Virus record (IMG/VR): IMGVR_UViG_3300045971_001064
Span: 11,256-75,255 of that record
Length of the DNA: 64,000 nt
Source of the DNA: a virus
Strand: one strand, 5' to 3'
Shown here: piece by piece, positions 19,052 through 59,550 of the stretch
How positions within the stretch are numbered: the stretch's first letter is position 1
Layout of the letters: each line of letters begins with the position of its first letter
Position numbers and translations under genes: made by a program
The notes under the pieces: generated by a model
What the model saw: only the letters and a program-made list of their open reading frames with translations
Database searches by the model: none
Told to the model about the DNA's origin: nothing

Positions 19052-19390
19052 CTAGCTCAGGTGCGTGCCCTGCGCCACGTTCTTGCCGGAGAACATCATG
19101 AACGAGCGGGAGGTGAAGACCTTGCCGTCGTAGGTGCTCTTGCTCACCTTGGTCTCGGTGGCGATGACCTGCCAGCGGAGGCCCGGCTTGGGCTTGACCA
19201 GCGCGAGCGCGTCGGCGACCAGCTTGTCCATCTCGAAGGTGTCGATGGGCGCGTCGAGGGCCCGGTCGGCGAGGTGGATGGTCTGGAACTTCGCCGTCCG
19301 GTTGCGGCCGTAGACGCCCTTGACGTGCAGGCGGTACTCCATCACGGTGGTCTCGGCGTCGGCGGCGGTCACTGCGGTCTGGGTGGTCAT
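19052..19390 (-). CDS. Hypothetical early protein (leaderless)
   Basis: ATG 7 nt after the TAGACT -10 of a TTGACA-N17 promoter. Confidence 0.65.
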   Translation of the reverse strand: MTTQTAVTAADAETTVMEYRLHVKGVYGRNRTAKFQTIHLADRALDAPIDTFEMDKLVADALALVKPKPGLRWQVIATETKVSKSTYDGKVFTSRSFMMFSGKNVAQGTHLS

Positions 19391-19426
19391 AGGAAGCAGT
19401 CTACTCCTTCTCGGGTTCGATGTCAA
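19388..19426 (-). promoter_or_regulatory. Sigma70-type leaderless promoter P1
   Basis: TTGACA-N17-TAGACT-N7-ATG. Confidence 0.8.
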
Positions 19427-19694
19427 GCGACCATTCCGGCCAGCCGCTGCCGTAGTACTTGGGGCCGAAGCTGATGTCCCAGCGCTCGACCGGCGCCTTG
19501 GCGCACTCGGCCATGGTGAACCAGCAGAGCATGTCGTGCTCGCCCTTGTCGGCCTTCCTGAGCCTGACCGACCAGCAGCAGGTCCCGGCCGAGCGGGTGC
19601 CCCAGCAGCGCCACCAAGCGTTCGGGCGGGGCTGCTCTAGGACCTCGAAGCCAAGGGCCTCCAGACGCTCCCTGATGACCTGAGAGGCCTTCAT
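19401..19694 (-). CDS. Hypothetical protein
   Basis: MKASQVIRERLE...; ATGA overlap with the upstream gene. Confidence 0.55.
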   Translation of the reverse strand: MKASQVIRERLEALGFEVLEQPRPNAWWRCWGTRSAGTCCWSVRLRKADKGEHDMLCWFTMAECAKAPVERWDISFGPKYYGSGWPEWSLDIEPEKE

Positions 19695-20026
19695 CCGGCG
19701 TCCTTGACCACTTCGTCGAGGCGGGTGACGACGTGCCCTCTCTCCCGCGACCGCTCGTGCCCGCCATATTCGGAGCGGAGCATGCCCGCCGCGGTCTGGC
19801 AGATGTGGACCTGCCGACGCCGCTCGCTCTTCGAGGTCGACTTCACACTGACCAGCCACGAGGCCGTGCCAGCGATGATGTCGCCGAAGTAGACGGCCAT
19901 CTTCTGGTAGTTGCGCAGGGCGAAGAAGAGGGTGCGGATGTCCTCGTCCGACATGCCCGGCTTCCCGGTGTCGACCATGGACTGCATGTACTTCTTCTCG
20001 ATGTCGTCGATGTTGAAGGTGCTCAC
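19691..20026 (-). CDS. Hypothetical protein
   Basis: GTG start overlapping the upstream stop. Confidence 0.55.
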   Translation of the reverse strand: MSTFNIDDIEKKYMQSMVDTGKPGMSDEDIRTLFFALRNYQKMAVYFGDIIAGTASWLVSVKSTSKSERRRQVHICQTAAGMLRSEYGGHERSRERGHVVTRLDEVVKDAG

Positions 20027-20265
20027 ATCGCCCCCATGCCCGGGAAGGTGGGGTTCTTGTCGCACCAGTCCTGCGCGCCCTCGCGGGTCAGGAAGGGCTT
20101 CCGGCCGAGGCCCGAGGTGCCGTCCGGGTGCACGACGGTCCAGCCGACGTTGACCATCTTCCAGTTCAGCTTGTCGGCCTCGGTGGTCCACGGGCAGGCG
20201 CCGCGGACAGAGGCGGTGAGGCCGGAGGTGTGCTTCCAGACGCGGGCGACGGCGACGGTGCTCAT
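20023..20265 (-). CDS. Hypothetical protein
   Basis: ORF in a tightly packed - strand block. Confidence 0.55.
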   Translation of the reverse strand: MSTVAVARVWKHTSGLTASVRGACPWTTEADKLNWKMVNVGWTVVHPDGTSGLGRKPFLTREGAQDWCDKNPTFPGMGAM

Positions 20266-20266
20266 G

Positions 20267-20563
20267 CTAGACCCCCTTGAGGAACGCGAGGATGGCGTTG
20301 CGGGTGTGCTTGATGCCGAGCGCCTTGCAGGCGTTCTTGAAGCCCTGACCGTCGTGGTTGAAGGAGCCGGTGCACAGCGCCCCCATCATCTTGATGTGGA
20401 CGCCAGCGACGCCGCCGAAGAAGGGCGCGTCGCCCATGACGCTGGCCACCATGTTGGGGCTGTAGTCGCTGGGGTTGGCGCGGACAGCGGCTTCGAGGCC
20501 AGCGCGGTAGGCGTCGGAGAAGGCGGCGAAGCGGTCGTCACGGAAGGCGTTGGGGTCGTTCAT
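20267..20563 (-). CDS. Hypothetical early protein (leaderless)
   Basis: MNDPNAF...; start set by promoter P2. Confidence 0.65.
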   Translation of the reverse strand: MNDPNAFRDDRFAAFSDAYRAGLEAAVRANPSDYSPNMVASVMGDAPFFGGVAGVHIKMMGALCTGSFNHDGQGFKNACKALGIKHTRNAILAFLKGV

Positions 20564-20599
20564 GGGAAGGAGTGTACCAGAGCCGGGGCCCGGTGTCAA
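20561..20599 (-). promoter_or_regulatory. Sigma70-type leaderless promoter P2
   Basis: TTGACA-N17-TACACT-N7-ATG; the upstream gene's TGA lies inside the -35. Confidence 0.85.
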
Positions 20600-20934
20600 G
20601 CCCGCCCGGAGAGCAGGTTGGCGATGGCGTAGGCCACGAGCCAGTGACGCGGGCGGTCGAGGATGTCCGTGGCGGTGATGGGGCCCGGGGAGGTCTGGCG
20701 GAAGGCCTTGACGTTCAGGGCGAAGCGAGCGCGCTCGTCGTCGGTGTAGCGGTCGATGGCGGTCGAGGTCTTCCGGGCCCGCGCGTAAATCATGCGCTCC
20801 CGGACGGAGGTGGCGATGGCCGAGTCGATGTCGTGCCAGTAGCGGTTGAACAGGTCCGCGGCGTGCAGGTCCTCCACGAGGCTGTACCACGTGTAGTCGG
20901 AGAGGTCGTTCCCGGCGGCGAGCTTGGTGGTCAT
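20596..20934 (-). CDS. Hypothetical early protein (leaderless)
   Basis: MTTKLAAG...; start set by P3. Confidence 0.65.
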   Translation of the reverse strand: MTTKLAAGNDLSDYTWYSLVEDLHAADLFNRYWHDIDSAIATSVRERMIYARARKTSTAIDRYTDDERARFALNVKAFRQTSPGPITATDILDRPRHWLVAYAIANLLSGRA

Positions 20935-20970
20935 GGGAAGGAGTATACGCTGGTCAGGGTGGGAAGTCAA
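20932..20970 (-). promoter_or_regulatory. Sigma70-type leaderless promoter P3
   Basis: TTGACT-N17-TATACT-N7-ATG. Confidence 0.85.
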
Positions 20971-20973
20971 GCT

Positions 20974-21375
20974 CTACAGCTTGGTCTCGGAGCCGCAGAA
21001 GCCGAAGCCGCGGAGGGAGCCCGAGACCTTGCCGCGCTTGCCGATGACGAACCAGCAGCCAGCGCCGCCCGAGATGTGCCCGTTGACCTCGACCATGACG
21101 CTGCCGGAGATGACCTTGTTGGGGCTGCCCTTGCGGCCCTCGATGACGGTCTTGAGGTCGACCTTGACGGTCAGGTTCGGCTTGTTGCCGAAGTAGTCGG
21201 CCTCGACGAGGGTCTTGCGGGCCAGCAGCCTGACGGCCGCCACTTGCGTGGAGGTCATGCTGAGCTTCATGTACTGAGCCCACGGCCGGAGGGCAGCGTC
21301 GACCCGCACGGACTGGGCGGCGTAGCGGACGTTCTCTTCGGCGCGGAAGGCGGCGATGGTCTCGGTGTCGGTCAT
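20974..21375 (-). CDS. Hypothetical early protein (leaderless)
   Basis: MTDTETI...; start set by P4. Confidence 0.65.
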   Translation of the reverse strand: MTDTETIAAFRAEENVRYAAQSVRVDAALRPWAQYMKLSMTSTQVAAVRLLARKTLVEADYFGNKPNLTVKVDLKTVIEGRKGSPNKVISGSVMVEVNGHISGGAGCWFVIGKRGKVSGSLRGFGFCGSETKL

Positions 21376-21410
21376 GGTGGTGTTGTACCATGGGGCGTCT
21401 CAGGTGTCAA
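21373..21410 (-). promoter_or_regulatory. Sigma70-type leaderless promoter P4
   Basis: TTGACA-N17-TACAAC-N6-ATG. Confidence 0.8.
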
Positions 21411-21499
21411 GACCCTCCTCCTACGGACTTTCTCCCGGACATCTCGGGCATCGAGGGTGATAGAAGCCCCCAATCTTCCTAGTAGAAAGAGGGAACACC

Positions 21500-21718
21500 A
21501 TGCCCGTCTACCTGAACGTGAAGCAGATGTCCTTGAGCCACACTCCGCCCGGCGCCGCCATCCCGCTGCCGGTGGCCTTCCTCGTCATGCCAGTCGTGGG
21601 GCTGGCGTTCCTGATGTTCCTCCCGGCCGTCGGCTTCGTGCTGGTCGGCAAGCACCTCGTCGTCGAGTGCGCCAAGACGCTGCCTCGCATCAGGGCGTGG
21701 TTCTGGCGCGAGGCCTAG
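21500..21718 (+). CDS. Small membrane protein
   Basis: Hydrophobic segment PVAFLVMPVVGLAFLMFLPAVGFVLVG; CAATCT at 21471 and SD AGAGGG upstream. Confidence 0.55.
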   Translation: MPVYLNVKQMSLSHTPPGAAIPLPVAFLVMPVVGLAFLMFLPAVGFVLVGKHLVVECAKTLPRIRAWFWREA

Positions 21719-21984
21719 CGCAGCATCCGGCACAGCAGGTTGGTGTCCTCGGGGCGGCTCTTCAGGTCGAGGCTGCTCGACTGGCCGATGCACTTCCAGT
21801 CGCCACCAATCTGAGCCACGAAGCCAGCCGAGAGCAGGACCTCGCGGCACGCCTTGTTGTTGTCGTACCACTTGTCGCCGAAGTAGCGCTGGCAGAAGTC
21901 GGCGTGCGTGATGAAGGCCGGGAAGATGAGGACAGCGCCGCCGCCCTCCAGCGTGTCGATGCAGACGTACTTGGCGTTCTCCAT
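21715..21984 (-). CDS. Hypothetical protein
   Basis: MENAKYVCID...; overlaps the sigma gene stop. Confidence 0.6.
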   Translation of the reverse strand: MENAKYVCIDTLEGGGAVLIFPAFITHADFCQRYFGDKWYDNNKACREVLLSAGFVAQIGGDWKCIGQSSSLDLKSRPEDTNLLCRMLR

Positions 21985-22643
21985 CACTCCTCCAGCATGC
22001 CGCGGGTGCGCTGGAGGATGACGGACTCCAGCTTGCGAACGGTCTCGCGTGCCACGCCGTAGCGCAGCGCCAGCGCGTCGAGCTTCATCGGCCGCTCGGA
22101 GAGCAGACGGTTGTAGACGAGGTCGCGGCAGAGGGCGAGCTTGTCGTACTTCTTCGAGGCGTCGGCGTGCAGGCTCGCGATGATGCGCTCCATGGCCTGC
22201 CGCACGCGGTCGGTGTTGTCGTAGGACAGGGCGATGTCCTCGGGAGTCGGGGCGTCGTCGGGGAGCATGTCGCTCCAGTCGCGGCCGTCCTCGCCGACCG
22301 GCGCGTCCAGCGAGACGTCGCTGCTGGCCGTGCGCACGTTGACCACCACCACCGAGGAGTTGGTGTTCCGCGAGCGCTTCACCTCGGTGCGGGCCCACTG
22401 CGCCGCCCAGAAGCGGAACTGGTAGCCCTTGGTCGGGTTGAAGCTGGGGATGGCGCTCTCCAAGATGGCGAGCCGCGCCACCTGCGCGAGGTCCTCCCGC
22501 TCGGCCTCCGTGCAGCGCCACTTGCCGACGATGGCCAGCACGTCGCGCTCGCAGAAGGCGAGGACGTCGCTGACGGCCTTGCGGTCACCGGCCTTGGCGC
22601 GGATAGCGAGGTCGTTCTGCTCGGCGGGGGTGAGACTCTTCAC
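21984..22643 (-). CDS. Phage RNA polymerase sigma factor (sigma70 family)
   Basis: Region 2 EREDLAQVARLAILESA..FNPTKGYQF; SLDAPVG..WSDMLPD; region 4 HTH KLDALALRYGVARETVRKLE; SD AAGGAG; TTGACG upstream. Confidence 0.85.
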   Translation of the reverse strand: MKSLTPAEQNDLAIRAKAGDRKAVSDVLAFCERDVLAIVGKWRCTEAEREDLAQVARLAILESAIPSFNPTKGYQFRFWAAQWARTEVKRSRNTNSSVVVVNVRTASSDVSLDAPVGEDGRDWSDMLPDDAPTPEDIALSYDNTDRVRQAMERIIASLHADASKKYDKLALCRDLVYNRLLSERPMKLDALALRYGVARETVRKLESVILQRTRGMLEE

Positions 22644-22779
22644 GTGTGACTCCTTGGCTGTGGACGGATGTTATCTCACGAATGGCTGCGCGCGTCAACT
22701 ACTTCCGCTTGGGGCTCGTACACCTTCGAGATGACCCGAAGTTGCTGGAGCGCGCGGCGGCGTACGTGCGAGAGCATGC

Positions 22780-23934
22780 TCAGAGTGCCACGTAGAGGCG
22801 AGCCTTGGGGAAGCGCGGGATACCGTCGGCGGTCAGGTCCTGATACTTGACGGTCAGCTTCTTGCCGACCATCGCCGCAGCCAGCTTCGCGACGACTGCA
22901 AGCTCCCCCATCATCGGCGTGTTGAAGCTCTTCCCGCTGGGCGTCTCGCAGGTGAAGACGGGGTACTCGACCGTCCGCTGCTCGCCGCCGCTGATGACCG
23001 TGCGGGTCTCGTACTGCACGCCGATGCACTGGTACTCGGCATCGAGGAACTTCTTCAGCTTCAGCAGGTCAGCGGACCGCTTGCCCACGTAGAGCCCGGC
23101 GAGATTGCGCGCCATGGCGCCCTCGTAGCCCGCCTCCAAGAAGGCCTCGAACAGGGCGTTCATCTCGGTCTCGTTCTGCACGATGACCGTGGGGGCGAGG
23201 ACGAGCGGGTGCTGCTGGGCGCAGGCGAACTCCTTCGTCAGCCAAGCCAGCCGCTGCGCGTAGGTCTCGGCCGTGACGACGTCGTAGATGTGGTACTCGA
23301 CCACCTCGTGGCCCACCTTGGGCTCCGCGGACCGCAGGATGGAGGTGAGCCCCTCGAACGTGAGGCTCATGGTGTAGGCCTCGCCGTCGAACCAGTGCTC
23401 GCCGGTCGGGAAGGTCATCTCCAGCGCCCGCTGGATGTGGGGCACGGAGTTGATGGGCTTCCGGGTGCGGGACCAGAGGGTGCAGACTCCTCCCTTGACG
23501 TGCGCCAGCGTCCGGTGGCCGTCGTACTTGCGCTGGATGGCGCACGGGAACTTGAGCGCCTTGGGCTTCTTCTCGATGGGGAAGGCGAGCATGGGGTCGA
23601 CACCGCCCTCGACGAGGTCAGACCCCTCCCCCGTCATGGCTGCTTCCTTGCTGGCGCAGTACCCCTTGGCCTTCTGCTGCTTCTCCCACTTCGACAGCGC
23701 CTGAGCGCAGGCCTGCTCGTAGGGCGAGGTCTCGTTCTTCTTGCCGACGTTCTTGCCCTTGGCGATGATGTCGCGGGTCTCTTGGAACTGGCCGCCCTCC
23801 TGCCCCCAGCGCGTGGAGATGATGGCGCTGACGGTCGGCAGAGCGCCACCCGAGTCCACGAGGATGTGCCACTCGATGACGTTGCCGTTCTCGGCCAGCT
23901 TGTAGAGAGTGGGGAATGTGGTCGGGTTGGGCAT
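22780..23934 (-). CDS. ATP-dependent DNA ligase
   Basis: Motif I QRKYDGHR, FDGEAY, YHIYDV, EGAMAR, LLKLKKFLDAEY, and OB-fold LTVKYQ..T.DGIPRFP. Confidence 0.92.
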   Translation of the reverse strand: MPNPTTFPTLYKLAENGNVIEWHILVDSGGALPTVSAIISTRWGQEGGQFQETRDIIAKGKNVGKKNETSPYEQACAQALSKWEKQQKAKGYCASKEAAMTGEGSDLVEGGVDPMLAFPIEKKPKALKFPCAIQRKYDGHRTLAHVKGGVCTLWSRTRKPINSVPHIQRALEMTFPTGEHWFDGEAYTMSLTFEGLTSILRSAEPKVGHEVVEYHIYDVVTAETYAQRLAWLTKEFACAQQHPLVLAPTVIVQNETEMNALFEAFLEAGYEGAMARNLAGLYVGKRSADLLKLKKFLDAEYQCIGVQYETRTVISGGEQRTVEYPVFTCETPSGKSFNTPMMGELAVVAKLAAAMVGKKLTVKYQDLTADGIPRFPKARLYVAL

Positions 23935-23943
23935 GGTGGTGTT

Positions 23944-24261
23944 CTACTCCCCTTTCGCCATCAGCGCAAGTCCCAAGATGGAAATCGCCATGCCGAGGTA
24001 CTGCACCCGGCTGGGGCGGAATCCGTAGTAGGCGAGCGCCATGAGGGCGGAGATGGTGAGGGTGACCTCGAAGATGAGGGTGATGAGCGGCAGGGACAGA
24101 GTCGAGAACTTGGCAAGGTAGTTCCACGCGAGCACCGGCACGAGCCCGGTCGCCGGACCCCACCACGCACTGATGGTGCCAGCGCGGATGGAGGTCATGA
24201 TGGTGGCCGAGATGTAGCCGCCGATGGCGATGAGCACGAAGCCGAAGAGCGTGTGGAGCAT
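23944..24261 (-). CDS. Four-TM small membrane protein (SMR/DMT-like)
   Basis: 105 aa with four hydrophobic segments. Confidence 0.55.
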   Translation of the reverse strand: MLHTLFGFVLIAIGGYISATIMTSIRAGTISAWWGPATGLVPVLAWNYLAKFSTLSLPLITLIFEVTLTISALMALAYYGFRPSRVQYLGMAISILGLALMAKGE

Positions 24262-24573
24262 CTACTTGCCCTTGGTGCAGTTGGTGGGGTTGCAGCCGGT
24301 CGGGCAGCAGAGGGGCTCGCCGATGAGTTCCTCCAGCGGACGCGGCACCTCTGGGTACGCCATCGACCTCGCGATGACGAGGTCCTCCCAGCACTCCCGC
24401 TCGCGCTCCTTGGCGTCGGCCAGCTTCTTCGTCTTGAGGTCGAACTCCTCCTGAGCCTCCTTCAGTCCGGCCTTGGCGTCAGCCAACTCATCCTGCACGC
24501 GGATGTGGTGCATGGTGGCGCGGTGGTAGGCCTCGGCAGCGACGACGGTCTTGGTGATGGGAGGGATGCTCAC
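24262..24573 (-). CDS. Coiled-coil hypothetical protein
   Basis: GTGA overlap start; heptad-rich. Confidence 0.55.
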   Translation of the reverse strand: MSIPPITKTVVAAEAYHRATMHHIRVQDELADAKAGLKEAQEEFDLKTKKLADAKERERECWEDLVIARSMAYPEVPRPLEELIGEPLCCPTGCNPTNCTKGK

Positions 24574-24857
24574 GGCGTCACCAGCTTCATCATGGCGCGG
24601 CCCATGGTGACGTCGCCGTTGCGGAAGGCGATGGCGAGGCACAGCGCGCCGTCGAGGGTCGGGGCGACGACGCTGGTGTCCTGTCCGTCGACGTAGGGGT
24701 GGAACTGGTTCAGATGGCCGCCAGCGGTCAGCCCCGTGTCCTTCTCCCGCTTCACGACCTCGGTCGGGGTGAACTCCACGATGGAGTAGGGCCCCACCTC
24801 GTGGGTCTGCTCGACGCGCCCCCAGACGAAGCGCAGGCCGTTCGGTCCGTTGGCCAT
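24570..24857 (-). CDS. Hypothetical protein
   Basis: Packed ORF. Confidence 0.55.
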   Translation of the reverse strand: MANGPNGLRFVWGRVEQTHEVGPYSIVEFTPTEVVKREKDTGLTAGGHLNQFHPYVDGQDTSVVAPTLDGALCLAIAFRNGDVTMGRAMMKLVTP

Positions 24858-24859
24858 GG

Positions 24860-25105
24860 CTAGTACCTCACCGTGCAGCCCTTGAAGACGAGGCCGCAGC
24901 AGACGGTGCCCTTGGCGCGCACGCCGAGCGCGTTGATGGCGCTGAAGCCGGTGGCCGAGAAGTCGCTCTCCGCGCAGGCGAAGGGCTCGTAGCCGGTGAT
25001 GCGGATGTCCCTGAAGCCCGCCGACTCCAGAGTCCGCCGGGCGTCGTCCTCGTTGGTGCAGGCGACGAGGGAGATGAGCAGCAGCGCGGCGAGGATGCTC
25101 TTCAT
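24860..25105 (-). CDS. Phage lipoprotein
   Basis: Lipobox LVAC; pattern ARR.LE..GF.DI.ITGY..F.C...D...TGF.A...G.VC.G..KG.T.R of a recurrent phage family. Confidence 0.7.
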   Translation of the reverse strand: MKSILAALLLISLVACTNEDDARRTLESAGFRDIRITGYEPFACAESDFSATGFSAINALGVRAKGTVCCGLVFKGCTVRY

Positions 25106-25734
25106 GACGCCTTCTTTCTGAGGTTGGAGGCGGCCTCCTTGGCAGCCTTGATGCGGTTCTGGCGGTCCTGCTCCAGCGCCTTCTCGTAGGCGTCGATGGC
25201 CTTCGCGGGGATGCGCTGGACGCCCTTGGGGACGCGCTGGACCTTCGGCTGGGGCTTGGCCGCCCGAGCGGGCTTCGAGGCCTTGGCGGCCTTGCGGAGG
25301 GCCTCCTTGCACATCTCCAGCCCCTCGACCACGACGAGCCGGTCGAGCACCTTGTAGCCCTCGGTCTTCATGTACTCGGCAGCCTTCTTCGGGTCGCGAG
25401 ACAGCAGCACCTTGAAGACGAGGACGGCCTCCTGCACCGCTCCGCGCTTGGCAGCGGCCTCCTCGTGCCGCCGCTTGTCGGCCAGCGCCGAGATGGGGAG
25501 CTTGGTCACGAACTCGTAGCGCCGCTCCTCGGGCTTGGCCGCGTCGGCCAGCACGCGCACGCGCTGGACGTTGTCCTCACCGCCGTACGGCTCGAAGTCG
25601 CGGCCGGTGACGGTCTTGCTGAAGGCGTCCATGGCCTGCTCGCGCTTGTTGAGGCTGCTGGCCTCCGGGGCACGGTCGTTCTTGAGGAACTCGTGCAACT
25701 CCGCCATCGAGAACTGCGTCTGCTCGGTCACCAT
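25102..25734 (-). CDS. Hypothetical basic helical protein
   Basis: SD AGGAG; CGTGC-TATCAT promoter upstream. Confidence 0.6.
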   Translation of the reverse strand: MVTEQTQFSMAELHEFLKNDRAPEASSLNKREQAMDAFSKTVTGRDFEPYGGEDNVQRVRVLADAAKPEERRYEFVTKLPISALADKRRHEEAAAKRGAVQEAVLVFKVLLSRDPKKAAEYMKTEGYKVLDRLVVVEGLEMCKEALRKAAKASKPARAAKPQPKVQRVPKGVQRIPAKAIDAYEKALEQDRQNRIKAAKEAASNLRKKAS

Positions 25735-25762
25735 GGTCGCTCCTGTTGAGGTGGGTCTCGGG

Positions 25763-25773
25763 ATGATAGCACG
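25763..25773 (-). promoter_or_regulatory. Extended -10 promoter CGTGC-TATCAT
   Basis: Intergenic, upstream of 25734. Confidence 0.6.
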
Positions 25774-25791
25774 CGGCTCAGCCGCGCGCCA

Positions 25792-26271: not shown

Positions 26272-26306
26272 GGAAGGAGTGTACCCTAGTTCGAGGTGGG
26301 AGTCAA
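26269..26306 (-). promoter_or_regulatory. Sigma70-type leaderless promoter P5
   Basis: TTGACT-N17-TACACT-N6-ATG. Confidence 0.85.
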
Positions 26307-26309
26307 GGC

Positions 26310-26585: not shown

Positions 26586-26620
26586 GGAAGGAGTGTACCA
26601 CCAGCCCGGACACGAGTCAA
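26583..26620 (-). promoter_or_regulatory. Sigma70-type leaderless promoter P6
   Basis: TTGACT-N17-TACACT-N6-ATG. Confidence 0.85.
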
Positions 26621-27986: not shown

Positions 27987-27988
27987 GG

Positions 27989-50305: not shown

Positions 50306-50333
50306 AGCCCCGCTGGTGCGGGGCTTTTCATTT
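50306..50333 (+). terminator. Rho-independent terminator
   Basis: AGCCCCGC-TGGT-GCGGGGCT followed by TTTCATTT, at the end of the tail island. Confidence 0.8.
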
Positions 50334-52578: not shown

Positions 52579-52958
52579 CAGCGCACCCCTTGGTCGAACA
52601 GCGTGCCGATGCGGTGGTCGGAGTTGCGGCCGACGTGCAGGTTGATGCGGCGGATGGAGCACTTGTCGATGAGGTGCTCCTTGCGCGCCACGATGACGCC
52701 CTCGATGGACGGGTAGAGGATGCGCAGCCCGTTCTCCTTGAGGGGGGCCGGTAGCAGTTCGAGGTCCGCGAACAGGACGTCCTCGCGCCAGTGCAGCTTG
52801 GCGCGGCCGAGCGGAAGGGTCAGCGGCTGAGGGCTTGGGTCCATGTACATGCTGACCTCGACCTCGCCGTCAGGCACCTCGACACCCTCCTTGCGGAAGA
52901 CGTCGCCCGAGGAGTCAGGCACGCCGTCGCAGACCAGAACCGCTACCGTGCCCCTCAC
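52578..52958 (-). CDS. Hypothetical protein, possibly an HK97 prohead-protease-like fold
   Basis: DGVPDSSGDVF..EGV...LG.A.L...LFADLEL...LYPSIEG...I..I.L....N.D.RI. Confidence 0.4.
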   Translation of the reverse strand: MRGTVAVLVCDGVPDSSGDVFRKEGVEVPDGEVEVSMYMDPSPQPLTLPLGRAKLHWREDVLFADLELLPAPLKENGLRILYPSIEGVIVARKEHLIDKCSIRRINLHVGRNSDHRIGTLFDQGVR

Positions 52959-53137
52959 GGCTGCCGCCCGTGCCAGAGCACCGCGGTGAAGGCGACGGTG
53001 AAGATGAAGGCGCCGACGATGGCGCCGCCGTACGTCCACAGCGTGTAGGGGTTGAGCCGCGCGTCCTGCACCATGGCGACGAAGCCCAAGCTGAGCAGGA
53101 AGAGGATGCTCACGACGATGCGGCGCTCGATGCTCAC
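52955..53137 (-). CDS. Two-TM small membrane protein
   Basis: Two hydrophobic segments. Confidence 0.55.
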   Translation of the reverse strand: MSIERRIVVSILFLLSLGFVAMVQDARLNPYTLWTYGGAIVGAFIFTVAFTAVLWHGRQP

Positions 53138-53430
53138 TTGCGGCTCCGCTTCTTGGACACCGCCTTCAGCCCCTCGACGACCTCGTCGGCGAGCTTGCGG
53201 AGCTTCTTCATCGAGACCCTCTTCTTCAGGTCCTTCACCTTCGTGCCGGTCAGGGACTTCGCGACCGCGTCGCGCAGCCCGGCGATGACCTTGTGCTCGT
53301 CGATGTCGGTCGGGCCGCGGTAGCCCTTGGGCGCCGTCTCGGCCTCCTCCTTCACCTTCGCCCGGAGCCGGAGGGTCTCCGCCCGGGTCAGCGGCTTGGT
53401 CTTCTTCTCGACCTCGTAGAAGCCGCGCAT
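53134..53430 (-). CDS. Basic hypothetical protein
   Basis: Lys/Arg-rich. Confidence 0.5.
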   Translation of the reverse strand: MRGFYEVEKKTKPLTRAETLRLRAKVKEEAETAPKGYRGPTDIDEHKVIAGLRDAVAKSLTGTKVKDLKKRVSMKKLRKLADEVVEGLKAVSKKRSRK

Positions 53431-53432
53431 GA

Positions 53433-53633
53433 CTAGGCGACCTCCAGCCCGGCGAGCTTCAGCTTCTCGCGCCAGTCGGCAGCGTCGGCCTCGGCCCGGA
53501 CCTCGCCCTCGAAGCGCCCGTTGACCGGCTGCCCGGCGTCGAACTCGTCGCCGATGCGGGTGTAGCCGATGCGGCTGTTCTTGATGACCGCTGCGTAGCG
53601 GCCCTGCTCTGCGACGACCTCGACGGTGACCAT
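53433..53633 (-). CDS. Hypothetical protein
   Basis: SD AAGGAG; CGTGC-TATGGT promoter at 53661-53671. Confidence 0.6.
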   Translation of the reverse strand: MVTVEVVAEQGRYAAVIKNSRIGYTRIGDEFDAGQPVNGRFEGEVRAEADAADWREKLKLAGLEVA

Positions 53634-53686
53634 GTGCTGCTCCTTGTGCGGGTTGGAACTACCATAGCACGCTGCCTCTGCTGGCG

Positions 53687-53887
53687 CTACTTCACCACCT
53701 CCACTCGCGAGCCGCGCTCGCTGAAGAACCTCTCGGCCTTCTCCACCTTCGACGCCAGCGCGCCGTTCACGATGATGCAGCAGCAGGCGTCCTTGCAGAA
53801 GGTCACCCGCTCGCGGCCGAACATGGCCATGGCGTGCAGCGCCAGTTGGACGGTGCCGGGGCAGATGAGCAGGTTGACGGTCTTCAT
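53687..53887 (-). CDS. Hypothetical protein
   Basis: ATGA overlap. Confidence 0.45.
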   Translation of the reverse strand: MKTVNLLICPGTVQLALHAMAMFGRERVTFCKDACCCIIVNGALASKVEKAERFFSERGSRVEVVK

Positions 53888-54513
53888 GCGGCCCGAGCCT
53901 TCAGCATGTCGGAGTGCGCCGCGATGGCACGAGCCCTCAGGTTGTTCTCGACGAAGGTCTTGTAGGCCGCCAGCAGGCCGTGGGAGATGAGTTCGGCATC
54001 GACCTCGCAGGAGTTGAAGAGGAAGTGAGCCGCGCCGTTGCGCTCCCACCTGCGGAAGTAGTCGCCGAAGGAGGCGCGGTCCTGAGCCCAGATGGCCTTC
54101 TCGGCGTTGCGCTTGAGCCGGTACAGGCGGCAGGCCTCGAACTGCTCGATGTGCCGAAGCTCGTGCGCGATGGTGTGGACGACCTCGTCGACGATGCTGT
54201 TGGCCACGTAGCCACCGGCCCGCTTGCCAACGCGGCCCGGGTAGTACCGGGTGATGGGGTACTCACCTTGGCCGCAGATGCTCCTCGGCAAGGTGCCGAT
54301 GCGCACGACGCAGGACCACTCGCCCTTCTTGACGGCTCGGCGGCCCGTGTCCGGGAAGTAGGCCTTGCCCCACGTCCCGCAGTGACCCTTCTTCGACTCG
54401 ATGGTCAGGCGCACCGGCATGTCGACATGGTTGAAGCACGGAGCGAGGAAGTCCACGATGGCCTTCAGGGCTTCGTCCGACCACTTCGACTTGTTGACGA
54501 GGGTGACGTTCAT
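53884..54513 (-). CDS. Zincin-like metallopeptidase (leaderless early gene)
   Basis: WGKA...V.I...TIAHELRHIEQ...EVDAE. Confidence 0.7.
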   Translation of the reverse strand: MNVTLVNKSKWSDEALKAIVDFLAPCFNHVDMPVRLTIESKKGHCGTWGKAYFPDTGRRAVKKGEWSCVVRIGTLPRSICGQGEYPITRYYPGRVGKRAGGYVANSIVDEVVHTIAHELRHIEQFEACRLYRLKRNAEKAIWAQDRASFGDYFRRWERNGAAHFLFNSCEVDAELISHGLLAAYKTFVENNLRARAIAAHSDMLKARAA

Positions 54514-54549
54514 GGGAGGAAGTTTACCATCATCGAGGGTGGTTGTCAA
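54511..54549 (-). promoter_or_regulatory. Sigma70-type leaderless promoter P9
   Basis: TTGACA-N17-TAAACT-N7-ATG. Confidence 0.85.
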
Positions 54550-54610
54550 GCCCGAAGCTGTCACCGTTCCGTGACAGCCCTGACACGTACGGCCGCGCAA
54601 TCCTTAGAGC

Positions 54611-54730
54611 ATGGAACTCTTCAACGTCGGCGGCGCGACCTTCCACGACCTGCTCCTGTGGGCCCTGCTGGCCACGCCGGGCATCGTCATCACGGGGCTG
54701 GACCTCGCGGGCTGGTGGCCTCAGTGGTAG
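54611..54730 (+). CDS. 39-aa membrane peptide
   Basis: MELFNVGGATFHDLLLWALLATPGIVITGLDLAGWWPQW; CAATCC variant motif just upstream. Confidence 0.4.
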   Translation: MELFNVGGATFHDLLLWALLATPGIVITGLDLAGWWPQW

Positions 54731-54787
54731 CCGCCTGCCTGCTCGTGCTCGGCCTCGTGCGCTGGTGCATGCCGACCGACGACTGAG

Positions 54788-54955
54788 TCACAGCCCCTGC
54801 TGGACGTGGCGCTCCTCCTCCCCGTTCGGGTCGTAGTCGGGCTCGTTGTCCAGCGGCTCGCGGTGCTCCGAGCAGAGGGCGTTGTGCCCCACGTTGGGGC
54901 ATCCCGGCACGCAGCACTCCTGAAGCTCGTCGACTTCGATGTCTAGTGGGTTCAT
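54788..54955 (-). CDS. Small acidic zinc-finger protein (leaderless)
   Basis: C.VPGC....LC.EH; start set by P10. Confidence 0.55.
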   Translation of the reverse strand: MNPLDIEVDELQECCVPGCPNVGHNALCSEHREPLDNEPDYDPNGEEERHVQQGL

Positions 54956-54990
54956 GGTCCCGTTGTACCACGAGCTTTTCCCTTAGTCAA
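54953..54990 (-). promoter_or_regulatory. Sigma70-type leaderless promoter P10
   Basis: TTGACT-N17-TACAAC-N6-ATG. Confidence 0.8.
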
Positions 54991-55006
54991 GCCCAAGGTT
55001 GAGCCC

Positions 55007-55014
55007 TAATCTAG
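55007..55014 (+). promoter_or_regulatory. Putative late promoter TAATCTAG
   Basis: Heads the 55037-56148 island. Confidence 0.65.
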
Positions 55015-55036
55015 GTCCTAGACCCGGAGACAACCT

Positions 55037-55393
55037 ATGGCCAGCCTTCGCCTTCCAGCCGTCACCACCTCGACCACCGCCGTCGGTACCTCCACCGGGT
55101 ACCTCGCCCTCGCCACCACCGTGGGCATCACCCGCCACGCCGTGCTCCAAGTCACTGCCGCAGGCGGCGGCGACGGCGGGTGGCTGTTGCAGGTCGACAG
55201 CATCGTCGATGGCACGCACCTCATCGCGCGCCAGTGCGGCTTCATCGCCGACAGCCCGGTGAACCCGGGCGTGCGCAACCCGCAGAACCTGTCCATCATC
55301 CCGAACGGCGCCGTCGTCGTGATGCCTGAGCAGTGGGTCGCTGACCTGTACTCTGACGACGCTCCGGACTCGCTCTCCATCCCCACCAAGTAG
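55037..55393 (+). CDS. Hypothetical late / virion protein
   Basis: SD GGAGA; beta-rich. Confidence 0.6.
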   Translation: MASLRLPAVTTSTTAVGTSTGYLALATTVGITRHAVLQVTAAGGGDGGWLLQVDSIVDGTHLIARQCGFIADSPVNPGVRNPQNLSIIPNGAVVVMPEQWVADLYSDDAPDSLSIPTK

Positions 55394-55407
55394 TCGAGGG
55401 GTAGCAC

Positions 55408-55821
55408 ATGTCAGACCGCGCGCAGGGGCCAGCTTGCGAGTGGCATGAGGAACGCATCTCTCGCAACGAAGACTCCTTGTCTGACGTGGCGGTGCAGATG
55501 GCTGGCATGAGTGAGCAGTTGAAGCACATGGTCGAGAAGGTTGGCGAGGTCGGCACTCGTCTCGGCGGCGACATCGACCGCTTCCGCGAGGCCAACGAGG
55601 CCGGGCAGAAGAAGCTGATGGTCGAGGTCGAGGCTCTCAAGGTTGCCAACGCCGAGCAGGACGTCAAGCTCGGCACGCTGCTGGCTGACCGGGAGACGCG
55701 AGTGGCGCGCATCGAGGCGCTCAAGAAGGGCGCCGTCTGGGTCGTGGTGGCTCTTCTCGGTGCGGTCGCTACGAAGTGGGGCGAGGCGCTGTACGAGTGG
55801 TTCGCTAAGTCGAAGGGGTAG
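55408..55821 (+). CDS. Coiled-coil protein with a C-terminal TM (holin/hemolysin-like)
   Basis: Long heptad helix, then KKGAVWVVVALLGAVATKW. Confidence 0.6.
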   Translation: MSDRAQGPACEWHEERISRNEDSLSDVAVQMAGMSEQLKHMVEKVGEVGTRLGGDIDRFREANEAGQKKLMVEVEALKVANAEQDVKLGTLLADRETRVARIEALKKGAVWVVVALLGAVATKWGEALYEWFAKSKG

Positions 55822-55824
55822 CTA

Positions 55825-56148
55825 ATGGGAATGGCCGGAACGCGCGACATCCTCGGCAAGTCCGCCATCGCGACCGTGGGTGTCGTTCTGCTCAAGGTCC
55901 TGTTCGCTGGCGCCTCCGTGAAGCTGGGTGAGCAGGCGTACTCCTTTGGGACTATCGACGCGGGCATGGTTGCCGCCCTCCTGACGCCGACGCTCGGCGC
56001 GTACGTGGCCAGCCTTCACGAACGGTTCGAGGATGAGGGGGCCGCACATGTGCCTACCGTCGCGCCAGTCGCGCTCATCGCTCCGATTGCGCCCATCGCC
56101 CCGGTGGCCCCTGTCGCTCCCATCGCTCCCATCGCTCCGGTGGCCTAG
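55825..56148 (+). CDS. Holin-like two-TM protein with a (I/V)AP repeat tail
   Basis: Two TMs; C-terminal VAPVALIAPIAPIAPVAPVAPIAPIAPVA. Confidence 0.55.
   Translation: MGMAGTRDILGKSAIATVGVVLLKVLFAGASVKLGEQAYSFGTIDAGMVAALLTPTLGAYVASLHERFEDEGAAHVPTVAPVALIAPIAPIAPVAPVAPIAPIAPVA
56059..56145 (+). repeat. Degenerate 9-bp tandem repeat encoding (I/V)AP
   Basis: atcgctccc / gtggcccct / gtcgcgcca units, about 9 copies. Confidence 0.75.
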
Positions 56149-56260
56149 CAGGCCTCCAGAGCAGCCCGCGGCAGCTTGGCTGCCGCTTCCACCACCCCTG
56201 CCCGAACGACGCCCCAGCGAGGCGCCCAGCCCCTCCAGCGGGGGTGTCTGGACCATCGAC

Positions 56261-56521
56261 CTAGTCGGGGACGAGGACTGAGGGGCGCTTCCAGAACCCC
56301 TCGCACCCGCAATCGCTGCACCCGCTCCACCAGAACTCCGGCAAGGCCTCGTCGATGGAGTCGCCCCGGATGTGCATGGGGACCGAGATGAGGGCCTCCG
56401 AGTGTCTGGATGCGCTGTGGTGGCACACGCAGGTGTCGAGCGACGCGGCCTTGAGGTCCGGCACCTCACGGCCAGCGAGGAGGTCTTCGGGGTGCTGGAT
56501 GACGACTGGCTGCCAGAGCAT
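56261..56521 (-). CDS. Cys/His hypothetical protein
   Basis: C.C.H....H...C..C.C..F. Confidence 0.5.
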   Translation of the reverse strand: MLWQPVVIQHPEDLLAGREVPDLKAASLDTCVCHHSASRHSEALISVPMHIRGDSIDEALPEFWWSGCSDCGCEGFWKRPSVLVPD

Positions 56522-56524
56522 GTG

Positions 56525-56677
56525 CTAGTCCTTCGGGGTGGCGAGGGCGCGGACGAGGAGGATGGCTGAGGTGCCGACGACCACCGCCACGCCGTAGGTC
56601 ACGGCGAGCGCGAGGCGAAGGGGCATCGCGGTCACGTTGTAGAACTGCGTGAGCTTCTGGTACTGGCGCTCGGTCAC
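56525..56677 (-). CDS. Small membrane protein
   Basis: GTGA overlap; one TM. Confidence 0.4.
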   Translation of the reverse strand: MTERQYQKLTQFYNVTAMPLRLALAVTYGVAVVVGTSAILLVRALATPKD

Positions 56678-56919
56678 GACCTGTACTCCATCGCCGCGGG
56701 CTGGCTGATGAAGCGCCGGGGCGGGTTGTTGGCCGGAGCCGAGACGACGAACGTGCCCTCGGGAGTGGTGATGGTGTCGAAGGGCGAGACGAGCCCGGTC
56801 ATCCACCCGAGCACGTCGATGTCCTTCGCATCGGGGCCAGCGACGCCGAGGTTCTCGGTGACGCCAGCGGGTCCGTGGAAGACGACGCTGCGGTCCGCGT
56901 TGAGGATGAGCCTAGCCAC
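56674..56919 (-). CDS. Hypothetical protein
   Basis: SD GGAGG. Confidence 0.5.
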   Translation of the reverse strand: MARLILNADRSVVFHGPAGVTENLGVAGPDAKDIDVLGWMTGLVSPFDTITTPEGTFVVSAPANNPPRRFISQPAAMEYRS

Positions 56920-57337
56920 GGCGAGCCTCCTTCTTCTGCTGGTCGTACTCCTGCCACATCTGCCAGAGCGCGAGCAGGCTGATGGCCTCCTCGGGCGTGG
57001 AGACGTGCATCACCTGCGGCAAGCGGTAGAAGACGTTGCGGTCGCCCTGCCTGCCCTTGTCGTCGAACCAGCCCACGACGATGACGCGCTTGCCGTAGGC
57101 GAGAGCGGCGCCGCACTCGATGTTGGCGCCGAGCATGCCGTCCTCCCAGAGGAGCACCAGCACCTGCGAGGCCCGGACGGCCATCAGGTCGGTGGCGGCG
57201 ATGGCCGCGTCGGTGGCGTCGTAGGCGCACTTGGGGCCGATGGCCCAGTTGTGCGTGACCTCGTGGCCAGCAGCGTTCAGCAGGGCGACGAAGTCGATGC
57301 AGCGCTGGCGGTCACGGCTCGCAGGGTAGACCTTCAC
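56912..57337 (-). CDS. Nucleoside 2-deoxyribosyltransferase-like protein
   Basis: KVY.AS...GHEV...W...DL.AV..S..LV.....GA.IE.G.ALA.GK.V.VVG...N.FY. Confidence 0.75.
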   Translation of the reverse strand: MKVYPASRDRQRCIDFVALLNAAGHEVTHNWAIGPKCAYDATDAAIAATDLMAVRASQVLVLLWEDGMLGANIECGAALAYGKRVIVVGWFDDKGRQGDRNVFYRLPQVMHVSTPEEAISLLALWQMWQEYDQQKKEARRG

Positions 57338-57555
57338 GGGTAGTTCCTCCGGTCGGTGATGGCGTTGATGTTGACGCGGGTCGCGTACTTGAGCCCCACC
57401 AGCCGCTCTTCCTGCTGTGACGGGAAGAGAGTTGGGCTGTCGTCGCTGACGTTGACCTCAAGGCCAGCGGCCCTGAGAGCATCCGCGATGGCAGCGGCGA
57501 TGGTGCTCTTGCCCGAGTTGAGCGGCCCGTTGATGGTGATGTGGACGTTCTTCAT
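57334..57555 (-). CDS. Short P-loop protein (truncated kinase-like)
   Basis: ITINGPLNSGKST Walker A in only 73 aa. Confidence 0.6.
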   Translation of the reverse strand: MKNVHITINGPLNSGKSTIAAAIADALRAAGLEVNVSDDSPTLFPSQQEERLVGLKYATRVNINAITDRRNYP

Positions 57556-58064
57556 GGCTGCTTCCAGCCGAGCAGGTTGTCGAGGTGGTCCCACATGCGG
57601 ATGATGATGAAGCTGTGCTCGCGGGAAAAGAGCGCCTCGCGGAACTCGGTGTACTCCTTCACGTACATGGCGAGCTTCTTCTCGTTGGGGCCGCGGACCG
57701 AGGTCTCGACGTTGGCGATGCGGTCGGCCAGCTTCACCAGCAGGCCCTGCTGCCCGGCCGCCCTGATGCGCGGGTAGGTGCGGGCGTGGCGCTCCTTCCG
57801 GTTCTCGCCGGGCTGGTCGCTGACCGCGTCCACGAGGTAGGCCACCCGGGGGCCGAAGATGGTCGAGATGTCGTGGAAGGTGACCTTGGTGTCCTCGATG
57901 GTGTCGTGGAGGTAGGTGGCCTCGTAGACGTCGTGGTTGTCGTCGTCGACGTCGAAGCGGCGGAGCACGTCGACCGCGTGGTCGAGGTGGGTGATGTAGT
58001 GCCCGGAGCCGTACTGCTGCCCGATGTGGGCGGCGTAGGCGAAGGCGCGTGCTGGGGTGGTCAT
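57552..58064 (-). CDS. HD-domain hydrolase (SpoT/Mesh1-like)
   Basis: FA..AH.GQ....YI.H...V...A.YLHD.IEDT...LV.AV....LVKLADR..N. Confidence 0.88.
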   Translation of the reverse strand: MTTPARAFAYAAHIGQQYGSGHYITHLDHAVDVLRRFDVDDDNHDVYEATYLHDTIEDTKVTFHDISTIFGPRVAYLVDAVSDQPGENRKERHARTYPRIRAAGQQGLLVKLADRIANVETSVRGPNEKKLAMYVKEYTEFREALFSREHSFIIIRMWDHLDNLLGWKQP

Positions 58065-58099
58065 GGTGCTGTTGTACTCCTACTGGGGCTGGGTGTCAA
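58062..58099 (-). promoter_or_regulatory. Sigma70-type leaderless promoter P11
   Basis: TTGACA-N17-TACAAC-N6-ATG. Confidence 0.8.
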
Positions 58100-58517
58100 G
58101 CGCCTTCTTGCGGAAGGGGCGGAGGGCCATGACGAGGCGCTTCAGGTCGTCGTCGGACAGGGCCTCGACCAGTTCGCGGTCAACGACCGAGCGGTCGAGG
58201 TAGAAGAGGACGCTGTTGACCAGCTTGCGGCGAGCGAGGAGCTTGTCGATTTCCTCGGTCCACGGGCGCATGTACTCCGTCCAGCCCCACGAGCCGCCGT
58301 GTCGCGCAGTGCCGTCGGGAGAGAACTTGTCGATGCCGTCAGAGCCCTTCTCGCGGATGCGAAATGCGCCAGTCGGCGTGATGCGCTCGACGGTGGACTT
58401 GGTGTAGCGCTCGCCTTGAGGTCCGCCGCGCGTGTCGCAGTAGACGCAGACGACGTCACCGACCTTCAAGGACTTCAGCCACGCCTTGTGGGCGTCCGCG
58501 GGCCAGATGCTGCTCAC
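58080..58517 (-). CDS. Hypothetical protein (SH3-like N-part)
   Basis: LKVGD.V...VERITPTG..R...KF..DG. Confidence 0.55.
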   Translation of the reverse strand: MSSIWPADAHKAWLKSLKVGDVVCVYCDTRGGPQGERYTKSTVERITPTGAFRIREKGSDGIDKFSPDGTARHGGSWGWTEYMRPWTEEIDKLLARRKLVNSVLFYLDRSVVDRELVEALSDDDLKRLVMALRPFRKKALDTQPQ

Positions 58518-58657
58518 GGCTTTCTCCAGAAGATGGCGATGGTGGCGCGCAGCCAGTTCATGAAGCGCTCCTTCGTCTCGGCCCACTCGTCGACGTAGGC
58601 GAGATGCCAGCCGAGGCCCTTGCAGGACTCGCACGGCTTCTTGTAGGTGGCCGTCAT
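58514..58657 (-). CDS. Small protein with a CxxCxGxG motif
   Basis: CESCKGLG. Confidence 0.45.
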   Translation of the reverse strand: MTATYKKPCESCKGLGWHLAYVDEWAETKERFMNWLRATIAIFWRKP

Positions 58658-58812
58658 GACTGGCGCTCCTTGAGCTTCTTGTCGAAGGCGACCTGCTTCT
58701 TGTCGGTCCATCCGCAGGACGGGCAGCGCCCGTGGATGAGGTCGCTGCGAGCCATCGCAGCGCCGCAGTCGCGGCACTCGAACTTCTCGATGGCCACGTA
58801 CCAGCGGGTCAC
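58654..58812 (-). CDS. Small zinc-ribbon protein
   Basis: CRDC..CPSC. Confidence 0.45.
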   Translation of the reverse strand: MTRWYVAIEKFECRDCGAAMARSDLIHGRCPSCGWTDKKQVAFDKKLKERQS

Positions 58813-58997
58813 GTCGTCACCTTGGTCCAGCCGCCTTCGAGCAGCCTCTTGCCGTGGAGGGTGCAGGCGCGCTGCGGCTTGCCCCACGAGACCTCCTTCT
58901 TCTCCACGGTCATCGTCGCCGTGTTCTGGCATCGAGCCAGCGGGGCCAGCGGGTTGCGCCACGCCTTCTTCGTCGTCTTGCTCTCGCACATCATCAC
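58809..58997 (-). CDS. Hypothetical protein
   Basis: C...C...C..H. Confidence 0.45.
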   Translation of the reverse strand: MMMCESKTTKKAWRNPLAPLARCQNTATMTVEKKEVSWGKPQRACTLHGKRLLEGGWTKVTT

Positions 58998-59515
58998 GGG
59001 TGCTCCTTCTTGTACTCGGCGGCGACCTGCTCGGCCTCGGCGAGGAACTTGGCTGCCTTCTCACGGTTGGTCTGGGCGTACTTGCGGTGCTGGCCTGCCT
59101 TCTTCTCGTTCTTCATCTCGTCGAACTTGTCGGCCTTGTCGTCGTCGTTGACGGCCAGCTTGGCCCACTTCTCCGCCTCGTCGCGCAGCCGCTGGAGCTT
59201 GTTGGCGGTCTCGTCGTACTCGGTGGGCCTGCCCAGCGCCCGCCAGTGCTCGACAGCCGCCGATGCCGCGGAGGGCATGTGCGCCGACGAGTCGACCACC
59301 ACCAGCTTGCCGGTCTCGCGCCGCACGTCGTCGGCGTCCTCTTCCAGCTTGGTCACGTCCACGTCCCAGTCCTTCACCATACGCCCCTCGACGATGGTCT
59401 CGGCGAGGGTGCGAGCCTTGGGCTTACGCTCCCCGAGCGCGGCGCGCATCGCGGTGTACTTGGCTTGCTGGGCGGCTCGAATCTCGGCTGCACGCTGGGC
59501 GTAGGGATAGTTCAT
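58994..59515 (-). CDS. Helical hypothetical early protein (leaderless)
   Basis: Start set by P12. Confidence 0.65.
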   Translation of the reverse strand: MNYPYAQRAAEIRAAQQAKYTAMRAALGERKPKARTLAETIVEGRMVKDWDVDVTKLEEDADDVRRETGKLVVVDSSAHMPSAASAAVEHWRALGRPTEYDETANKLQRLRDEAEKWAKLAVNDDDKADKFDEMKNEKKAGQHRKYAQTNREKAAKFLAEAEQVAAEYKKEHP

Positions 59516-59550
59516 GAGAGGATTGTACCACGGCTACAGACGCTTGTCAA
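59513..59550 (-). promoter_or_regulatory. Sigma70-type leaderless promoter P12
   Basis: TTGACA-N17-TACAAT-N6-ATG. Confidence 0.88.

Follow-up and report, generated by a model that had tools for sequence, protein, structure and literature searches.

The Cluster O mycobacteriophages (the Corndog group) carry at least eight predicted SigA-like promoters, three of which place the +1 position on the first base of a start codon (PMC4351075), and phage transcripts have been noted to be often leaderless in a study of phage transcriptomes (PMC5312081). In T4-type phages, repeated early-promoter sequences known as promoter early stem-loops (PeSLs) are found in plastic regions of the genome (PMC2839356, PMC4122927). 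Among bacteria, the proportion of leaderless genes has been predicted to reach about 16% in some delta-proteobacteria (PMC3160421), a leaderless pexR mRNA has been proposed in myxobacteria (PMC12754779), and start-codon identity, zero leader length and accessibility of the start codon have been identified by experiment as determinants of leaderless mRNAs (PMC8459731). Here we describe twelve promoters from an uncultured phage, located within a window of 64,000 nt (bases 11256–75255 of the 98,738-bp IMG/VR viral contig IMGVR_UViG_3300045971_001064; coordinates below are those of the window), each standing so close to an ATG that the transcript is predicted to begin on its A. Our preferred explanation, to which we assign a probability of about 0.6, is that the twelve are strong promoters for the host primary sigma factor (sigma70/SigA type), that their +1 falls on the A of the ATG so that the first cistron would be leaderless, and that this layout is a habit of the phage clade.

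The twelve full-consensus promoters

The pattern CTTGACW-N17-TANAMY matches the window at twelve sites, all on the minus strand, and was returned by none of 100 dinucleotide shuffles; the initial annotation, which had reported twelve CTTGAC–17 nt–TA promoters lying 6 or 7 nt before an ATG, placed every one of them correctly. The wider motif scan that it had recommended was extended to the whole contig and returned the same twelve matches and no others. Allowing up to three mismatches to CTTGACA-N16-GTACACT again returned these twelve, against 2.3 expected, which argues for a sharply bounded promoter class with no tail of weaker copies. The twelve cassettes are as follows.

Cassette 1: 19052–19427, minus strand; promoter 19427–19398, ATG 19390; 112 aa, no known family
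Cassette 2: 20267–20600, minus strand; promoter 20600–20571, ATG 20563; 98 aa, heads a four-gene run
Cassette 3: 20596–20971, minus strand; promoter 20971–20942, ATG 20934; 112 aa
Cassette 4: 20974–21411, minus strand; promoter 21411–21382, ATG 21375; 133 aa, first unit of its island
Cassette 5: 25792–26307, minus strand; promoter 26307–26278, ATG 26271; 159 aa
Cassette 6: 26310–26621, minus strand; promoter 26621–26592, ATG 26585; 91 aa, head of the island with the DNA ligase and sigma factor
Cassette 7: 41131–41415, minus strand; promoter 41415–41386, ATG 41379; 82 aa; 12 of the 16 spacer positions agree with cassette 5
Cassette 8: 41418–41810, minus strand; promoter 41810–41781, ATG 41774; 118 aa
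Cassette 9: 53884–54550, minus strand; promoter 54550–54521, ATG 54513; 209 aa, HExxH motif
Cassette 10: 54788–54991, minus strand; promoter 54991–54962, ATG 54955; 55 aa, Cys-rich
Cassette 11: 57552–58100, minus strand; promoter 58100–58071, ATG 58064; 170-aa HD-domain protein, heads a six-gene run
Cassette 12: 58994–59551, minus strand; promoter 59551–59522, ATG 59515; 173 aa

The sequence has the features expected of primary-sigma promoters, namely a −35 element near TTGACA, a 17-nt spacer and a −10 hexamer of the form TAnnnT. The −35 element reads TTGAC[A/T] and is preceded by C at all twelve sites, the spacer is exactly 17 nt in every case, and the −10 element has TA and an A at position 4 throughout, its last base being T in eight copies and C in four (TACAAC). 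A G occupies position −13 in all twelve, and six sites have TG at −15/−14. The gap between the −10 element and the ATG is 6 nt at eight sites and 7 nt at four. Most of the conservation lies in the two hexamers and at position −13 rather than in the spacer; the spacers agree at 5.7 of 16 positions as against 4.4 for random sequence, slightly above chance, and apart from two pairs that look paralogous (12/16 and 11/16) they share little beyond the hexamers.

It had been stated that most of these promoters drive one short gene of no recognised function, which holds for the six cassettes with a single gene before the next promoter, but the other six head runs of two to six genes. The later cistrons behind the promoters carry normal Shine–Dalgarno (SD) sites. 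No T-run (intrinsic) terminators were found between the tandem units, and the 60 nt upstream of the promoters hold no consistent hairpin; only cassette 9 (54550) has one, a strong hairpin of 10 bp at 54551–54580 (minus strand), immediately upstream of its −35 element.

Start codons and signatures of leaderless translation

Each ATG opens an open reading frame (ORF) of 55–209 aa with a GC content at third codon positions (GC3) of 0.89–1.00. The high-GC3 coding signal begins at codon 2, and an internal start preceded by an SD site occurs within 45 codons in just two of the twelve. A gene caller based on codon usage and trained on long genes chose the same ATG in ten cases, the other two being over-extended by the rule used, and in the 58064 protein Pfam HD_4 matches from residue 5 onwards. 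Taken together, the coding signal, the gene caller and the HD_4 match indicate that the twelve ATGs are true starts. Eight of the ORFs have in-frame starts further upstream, which longest-ORF calls would take, and the earlier suggestion that the promoters correct the start codons of such calls is thus borne out.

The start codon is ATG in all twelve cassettes, as against 63% of 115 other genes, the remaining 37% of which use GTG or TTG (p=0.004). Anti-SD pairing of the 18 nt upstream is weaker than in the other genes (p=0.002), most of which carry AGGAG-type sites. The first 30 nt fold with −2.1 kcal/mol compared with −4.3 kcal/mol elsewhere (p=0.0005), the first 30–50 nt are likewise less structured than in other genes (p=0.0003–0.002) and the 5′ ends are poor in G. 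In eleven of the twelve, codon 2 is ACC or AAC. Positions −1 and −2 are pyrimidines without exception, and the A of the ATG is the sole purine there. The description of the cassettes as having no SD sequence requires some qualification: ten have none within reach, but at 19390 and 58064 the promoter spacer contains an AGGAG, 12–13 nt from the ATG and ahead of the predicted transcript start. On these grounds the first cistron of each cassette should be a leaderless mRNA, a prediction that we consider well supported by sequence and comparison.

Conservation of the layout in relatives

A search with the HD-domain protein of cassette 11 led to relatives of the phage, from which eight lineages (L169–L176) with 67–88% identity were taken; their contigs share this phage's virion genes. 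(A peptide-pattern search of viral contigs with the same protein had found nothing, and it was a larger protein search that succeeded.) In L173 and L169/L170 (GC 0.66–0.67), the HD gene lies behind TTGACA-N17-TAGGAT with its ATG 6 nt on, and in L171 and L172 (GC 0.51 and 0.54) it lies behind CGTGCTAGGAT, a copy of the extended −10 motif described below, here too with 6 nt to the ATG; the discriminator sequences are unrelated. In L174, L175 and L176, the HD gene has no promoter of its own and sits as an internal cistron behind an SD site. The presence of the 6-nt gap wherever there is a promoter, and of an SD site where the gene is internal, indicates that the mode of initiation follows the position of the gene and not the gene itself.

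Cassette 12 has orthologues, promoter as well as 173-aa ORF, in both L169 and L173. ATG-fused full-consensus promoters are also found in the relatives more generally (five in G001, three in L175 and two each in L169, L173, L174 and L176), where the fused ORFs range from 62 to more than 300 aa, and nearly all host-type promoters in these six contigs are ATG-fused. For eleven of the twelve lead proteins, neither G001 nor Myxococcus phage Mx1 has a homologue. We regard the relatives as the strongest support for the predicted leaderless layout.

Other promoter classes and timing

Two further promoter-like motifs are present in the contig. The first, an extended −10 element (CGTGCTAnnnT), occurs in 17 copies on both strands, often at divergent junctions, where it heads most of the minus-strand islands. 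A conserved GTGGCGC stands 17 nt upstream of its −10, in the manner of a −35 element. An ATG follows after exactly 6 nt in six copies (59998, 42147, 38532 and three left of the window), whereas the remaining copies are followed by leaders of 19–28 nt with SD sites; the motif is conserved in relatives with GC of 0.51–0.67. A sigma54-type reading of GTGGCGC ... GTGCTA was considered and rejected, as the spacing does not fit a −24/−12 arrangement. The second motif, AATCTAG, has 14 copies, of which 13 are on the plus strand, just upstream of the tail sheath gene, the polyvalent protein gene and other virion or plus-strand genes; it has no −35-like element, and about four copies are leaderless. AATCTAG is a candidate late promoter for the sigma factor that the phage itself encodes. 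Two sites with AATCTAG, 5 nt and ATG are found in Mx1 also. The corresponding features are listed here.

Extended −10 copies, minus strand: 60005–60014, 42154–42163, 38539–38548, 53661–53670, 40256–40265, 28906–28915 and 25763–25772 (more lie left of the window)
Extended −10 copies, plus strand: 9895–9904 and 33011–33020
59534–60013, minus strand: predicted leaderless unit; extended −10 CGTGCTAGGAT, 6 nt, ATG 59998; head of an island
41806–42162, minus strand: predicted leaderless unit; extended −10 CGTGCTACAGT, 6 nt, ATG 42147
38080–38547, minus strand: predicted leaderless unit; extended −10 CGTGCTAGGAT, 6 nt, ATG 38532
60032–60430, plus strand: predicted leaderless unit; AATCTAG, 5 nt, ATG 60044
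AATCTAG copies, plus strand: 105, 10450, 17247, 28946, 30679, 43017, 45875, 55008 and 60032 (others lie left and right of the window)
21984–22643, minus strand: phage-encoded sigma factor, 219 aa, regions 2–4 covered
Within the window: polyvalent protein, 2671 aa, with ART-PolyVal, radical SAM and NUDIX domains

The contig thus holds at least ten further leaderless units (at least six behind extended −10 elements and about four behind AATCTAG). The twelve had been presented as a leaderless early programme and all twelve are indeed fused, but they are an incomplete set of such units; leaderless starts occur in all three classes, and only the full-consensus class is leaderless without exception. 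The use of either promoter type by the HD gene in relatives, with the same TAGGAT, suggests that the host sigma factor reads both the full-consensus and the extended −10 classes. That the twelve are early promoters is plausible, given the promoter type, the presence of a phage sigma factor and the separate motif at the virion genes. The lead genes also have the traits of an early class, being small, poorly conserved and set apart from the virion module.

Lead proteins and genome setting

Ten of the twelve lead proteins have no Pfam or PHROG family. The 170-aa protein at 58064 belongs to the family of RelA/SpoT hydrolases, Mesh1 and small alarmone hydrolases (SAH), has an HDxxED motif, matches RelA/SpoT hydrolase domains, Mesh1 and SAH structures in the PDB, and has more than 360 homologues, many of them on phage-like contigs; as an alarmone hydrolase-like protein it might reduce the (p)ppGpp level of the infected host. 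The 209-aa protein at 54513, with its HExxH motif, has zincin or SprT-like look-alikes, which we treat as a lead only. An atlas look-up with the 159-aa protein of cassette 5 gave no usable match. With ten of the twelve outside any recognisable family, the term 'host takeover' for the lead genes is a guess.

The contig is about 60% complete (CheckV estimate), with a GC content of about 66%, and its DNA was placed in pond metagenomes (two DNA runs). In the second pond run the same phage is present at low depth, with no informative variation at the promoters. Differences cluster at 26.9–27.0 kb, in a high-depth, repeat-like stretch; depth jumps 4- to 25-fold at 26796–27459 in both runs, many short divergent contigs map there, and the sequence at about 26.9–27.05 kb is common to other abundant DNA of the pond samples.

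Two 8-kb stretches of the window gave no megablast match to cultured phages. The tail sheath shares 45% identity with its Mx1 counterpart, and there is synteny with Mx1 among the plus-strand virion genes. The phage is an Mx1-like myovirus; besides the sheath, the window encodes a DNA ligase and an RNA ligase. The virion gene order is contiguous in Mx1, but here the homologues of genes adjacent in Mx1 are split by minus-strand accessory islands, which in the window occupy the following positions.

17737–28809, minus strand: accessory island
35388–38538, minus strand: accessory island
39703–42147, minus strand: accessory island
50328–59998, minus strand: accessory island

All twelve cassettes, the sigma factor and both ligases sit within these islands. 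Kinship with Mx1 and the homologues of the HD protein in metagenome-assembled genomes (MAGs) of Myxococcota and delta-proteobacteria point weakly to a host among the Myxococcota; a scan of genome contigs with the sheath protein found no relative, and thus no prophage that could serve as evidence of host. An actinobacterial host, our first guess from GC content, was set aside since the nearest cultured relative infects Myxococcus and the named bacterial sources of HD homologues are Myxococcota or delta-proteobacterial MAGs. In its leading C, CTTGAC agrees with the rhizobial consensus (PMC3384568), a likeness too weak for a host to be assigned.

Occurrence in other viral contigs

A pattern scan of IMG/VR returned at least 116 loci, and the 80 of these that were examined held 81 sites in sequence of 29–66% GC, 76 of them followed by an ORF of at least 40 aa. 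Two T4-like (Kyanoviridae-like) contigs unrelated to this phage, G003 and G005, contain 23 and 17 sites, respectively, of the form CTTGACA-N17-TACAAT-ACACAC-ATG. The cultured cyanophage S-CREM1 has only three pattern matches, so that the arrays of G003 and G005 are not a general trait of cyanomyoviruses. Most of their sites lie in terminal regions with a GC content of 0.55 as against 0.40 overall (133–146 kb of G003, L156–L163; 68–75.5 kb of G005, L164–L167), in tandem units with ORFs of 45–143 aa whose design matches that described here. In G005, a 56%-identical homologue of window 30448–30711 stands beside the array. An ORF of 153–154 aa recurs behind a fused consensus promoter in many unrelated IMG/VR contigs with a GC content of about 0.4 (L042, L044, L053, L062, L063, L088 and L093), and is possibly a leaderless regulator gene.

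Proposed mode of expression and its alternatives

The motif, its geometry, the coding starts, the leaderless signatures and the conservation in relatives are direct results of this study; the start site itself, the timing, the host and the benefit are inferred. Host RNA polymerase with its primary sigma factor would start the transcript on the A of the ATG, making the first cistron leaderless, in cassettes that lie in minus-strand islands between conserved plus-strand virion genes. The genes so driven would be small, fast-evolving and mostly of unassigned function, together with the (p)ppGpp-hydrolase-like and putative zincin-like proteins. The clade habit, as we see it, would be that a gene directly behind a promoter is fused to it at 6–7 nt and that the same gene, when internal, is given an SD site, the layout thus being tied to the phage clade and not to particular genes. 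The reasons are most likely ordinary ones: the hosts would translate mRNAs with a 5′-terminal AUG well, and a promoter plus an ORF would make the smallest portable expression unit. Firing would probably be early, as only the host holoenzyme would be needed, with the phage sigma factor taking over later at AATCTAG.

Several points weigh against this explanation. The transcription start site of the twelve is predicted from geometry alone. The HD gene stands behind a full −35/−10 promoter in some relatives and an extended −10 in others, and this switch of class blurs the boundary of the twelve as a temporal class; the GTGGCGC upstream of the extended −10 leaves the pairing of sigma factors with promoter classes unsettled. 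Furthermore, with no terminators between tandem units, read-through transcripts must exist.

It is extremely improbable that the repeats are not promoters at all but sites for recombination or for binding of a regulator that happen to resemble the sigma70 consensus. The slight likeness of the spacers and the two paralogous-looking pairs would suit such sites, as would the gene shuffling that early-promoter cassettes of the PeSL type mediate in T4-type phages (PMC4122927), but it is the hexamers and position −13 that are conserved and not the spacer, the 17-nt spacing is exact, the copies are placed before genes in one orientation, there is no stem-loop partner, and a recombination role would add to promoter function without replacing it. 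Transcription might instead begin to one side of the A, by a few nucleotides, so that the leader would be very short or the start internal and the mRNA would not be strictly leaderless. RNA polymerases do differ by 1–2 nt in their choice of start site, and the gap is 7 nt at four sites; we nevertheless think this quite unlikely, as the A is the only purine available next to the pyrimidines at −1/−2 in all twelve, the 6-nt distance is kept in orthologues in spite of unrelated discriminators, and the start codon is ATG throughout.

The initial annotation had gone further and proposed that leaderlessness is an adaptation by which host-takeover genes stay translated while SD-dependent initiation is impaired by cargo enzymes or host defences. 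In favour of this, 70S ribosomes load directly onto leaderless mRNAs, the phage carries the 2671-aa polyvalent protein with its ART-PolyVal, radical SAM and NUDIX domains, and a (p)ppGpp-hydrolase-like lead gene would fit interference with the host stress response. However, later cistrons on the same transcripts and most phage genes, late ones included, use SD sites, the HD gene is SD-led in three relatives, leaderless starts lie behind all three promoter classes, no function directed at the ribosome or 16S rRNA was found in this analysis, and ten of the twelve lead proteins are of unassigned function. With genes of the same operons and the HD gene itself SD-led, this claim finds no support, and we consider such an adaptation very unlikely. 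A role in insulation is compatible with the explanation that we prefer: a lead gene without an SD site would be translated only from a transcript starting at its own ATG, and its synthesis would end when the host sigma factor is shut off, despite read-through. The tandem units without intrinsic terminators, the extended −10 promoters at island heads upstream of the cassettes and the absence of an SD site within reach in ten cassettes all speak for this idea, but stop codons 8–37 nt before the ATGs would permit re-initiation by terminating ribosomes, two cassettes have AGGAG 12–13 nt upstream of the ATG, and the idea is a matter of inference only; we regard it as unlikely. A bolder form would make ATG fusion a deliberate control device of the whole clade, in which each accessory protein is made only from its own-promoter transcript and shut-off of the host sigma factor halts all of them despite read-through, and which arose independently in the unrelated large myoviruses G003 and G005; this we think doubtful. 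Setting these alternatives beside the twelve as host-sigma promoters fused to their start codons, we see a known way of phage gene expression in a tidy case and no new mechanism, predicted leaderless phage promoters having already been published.

Significance and comparison with known systems

For about 22 genes of this uncultured Mx1-like phage, the analysis fixes the start codon exactly and delimits the transcription unit; gene callers that depend on an SD site or choose the longest ORF will place starts of this kind wrongly. Such units are widespread among viral contigs, which suggests that phage annotation gives leaderless initiation too little weight. The SD leaders of Mx1 and their absence from this clade offer a natural comparison with which to test what a phage gains from dropping the leader.

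In our own analysis of Mx1 (OR576727.2), 33 consensus promoters were found in a minus-strand block at 86–122 kb. Only one is ATG-fused; in the other 32, a stretch of 18–41 nt that includes an AGGAG-like site separates the −10 element from the annotated start. The two phages are alike in that TTGACN-16/18-TAnnnT promoters each stand in front of a small hypothetical gene, or of a few such genes, encoded on the strand that does not carry the virion genes, but in Mx1 the promoters form one 35-kb block and have SD leaders, whereas here they are ATG-fused and scattered in islands between late genes. In nearly all promoters of the Mx1 block (L039) the spacer contains GGATCT or AGATCC, and the AGGAG site follows a conserved leader (...ACCTCGAACA...); these may be an operator and a leader element, of which we know of no description.

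As in Cluster O, strong host-type −35/−10 promoters are predicted from sequence, some of them are leaderless, and leftward promoters lie within or beside structural genes (PMC4351075). In Cluster O, however, three of eight or nine promoters are leaderless and the host is actinobacterial, whereas here all twelve are, with at least ten more units behind other promoter types, the fusion rule is also followed in relatives, and this is an Mx1-like myovirus. The PeSLs of T4-type phages resemble the present cassettes in that promoters flank variable small ORFs in plastic regions interspersed among conserved genes. PeSLs, however, are composite terminator–promoter elements in near-identical repeats; the twelve lack a stem-loop terminator joined to the early promoter and have no consistent stem-loop, their spacers mostly differ, and it is the fusion to the ATG that defines them. 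With bacterial leaderless mRNAs the cassettes share a TANNNT about 10 nt before the start, an AUG start codon, the lack of an SD site and an accessible 5′ end (PMC3160421, PMC8459731), but those mRNAs, from Actinobacteria, Deinococcus-Thermus, some delta-proteobacteria and Caulobacter, are of host genes, whereas here the arrangement belongs to a phage and extends to every full-consensus promoter.

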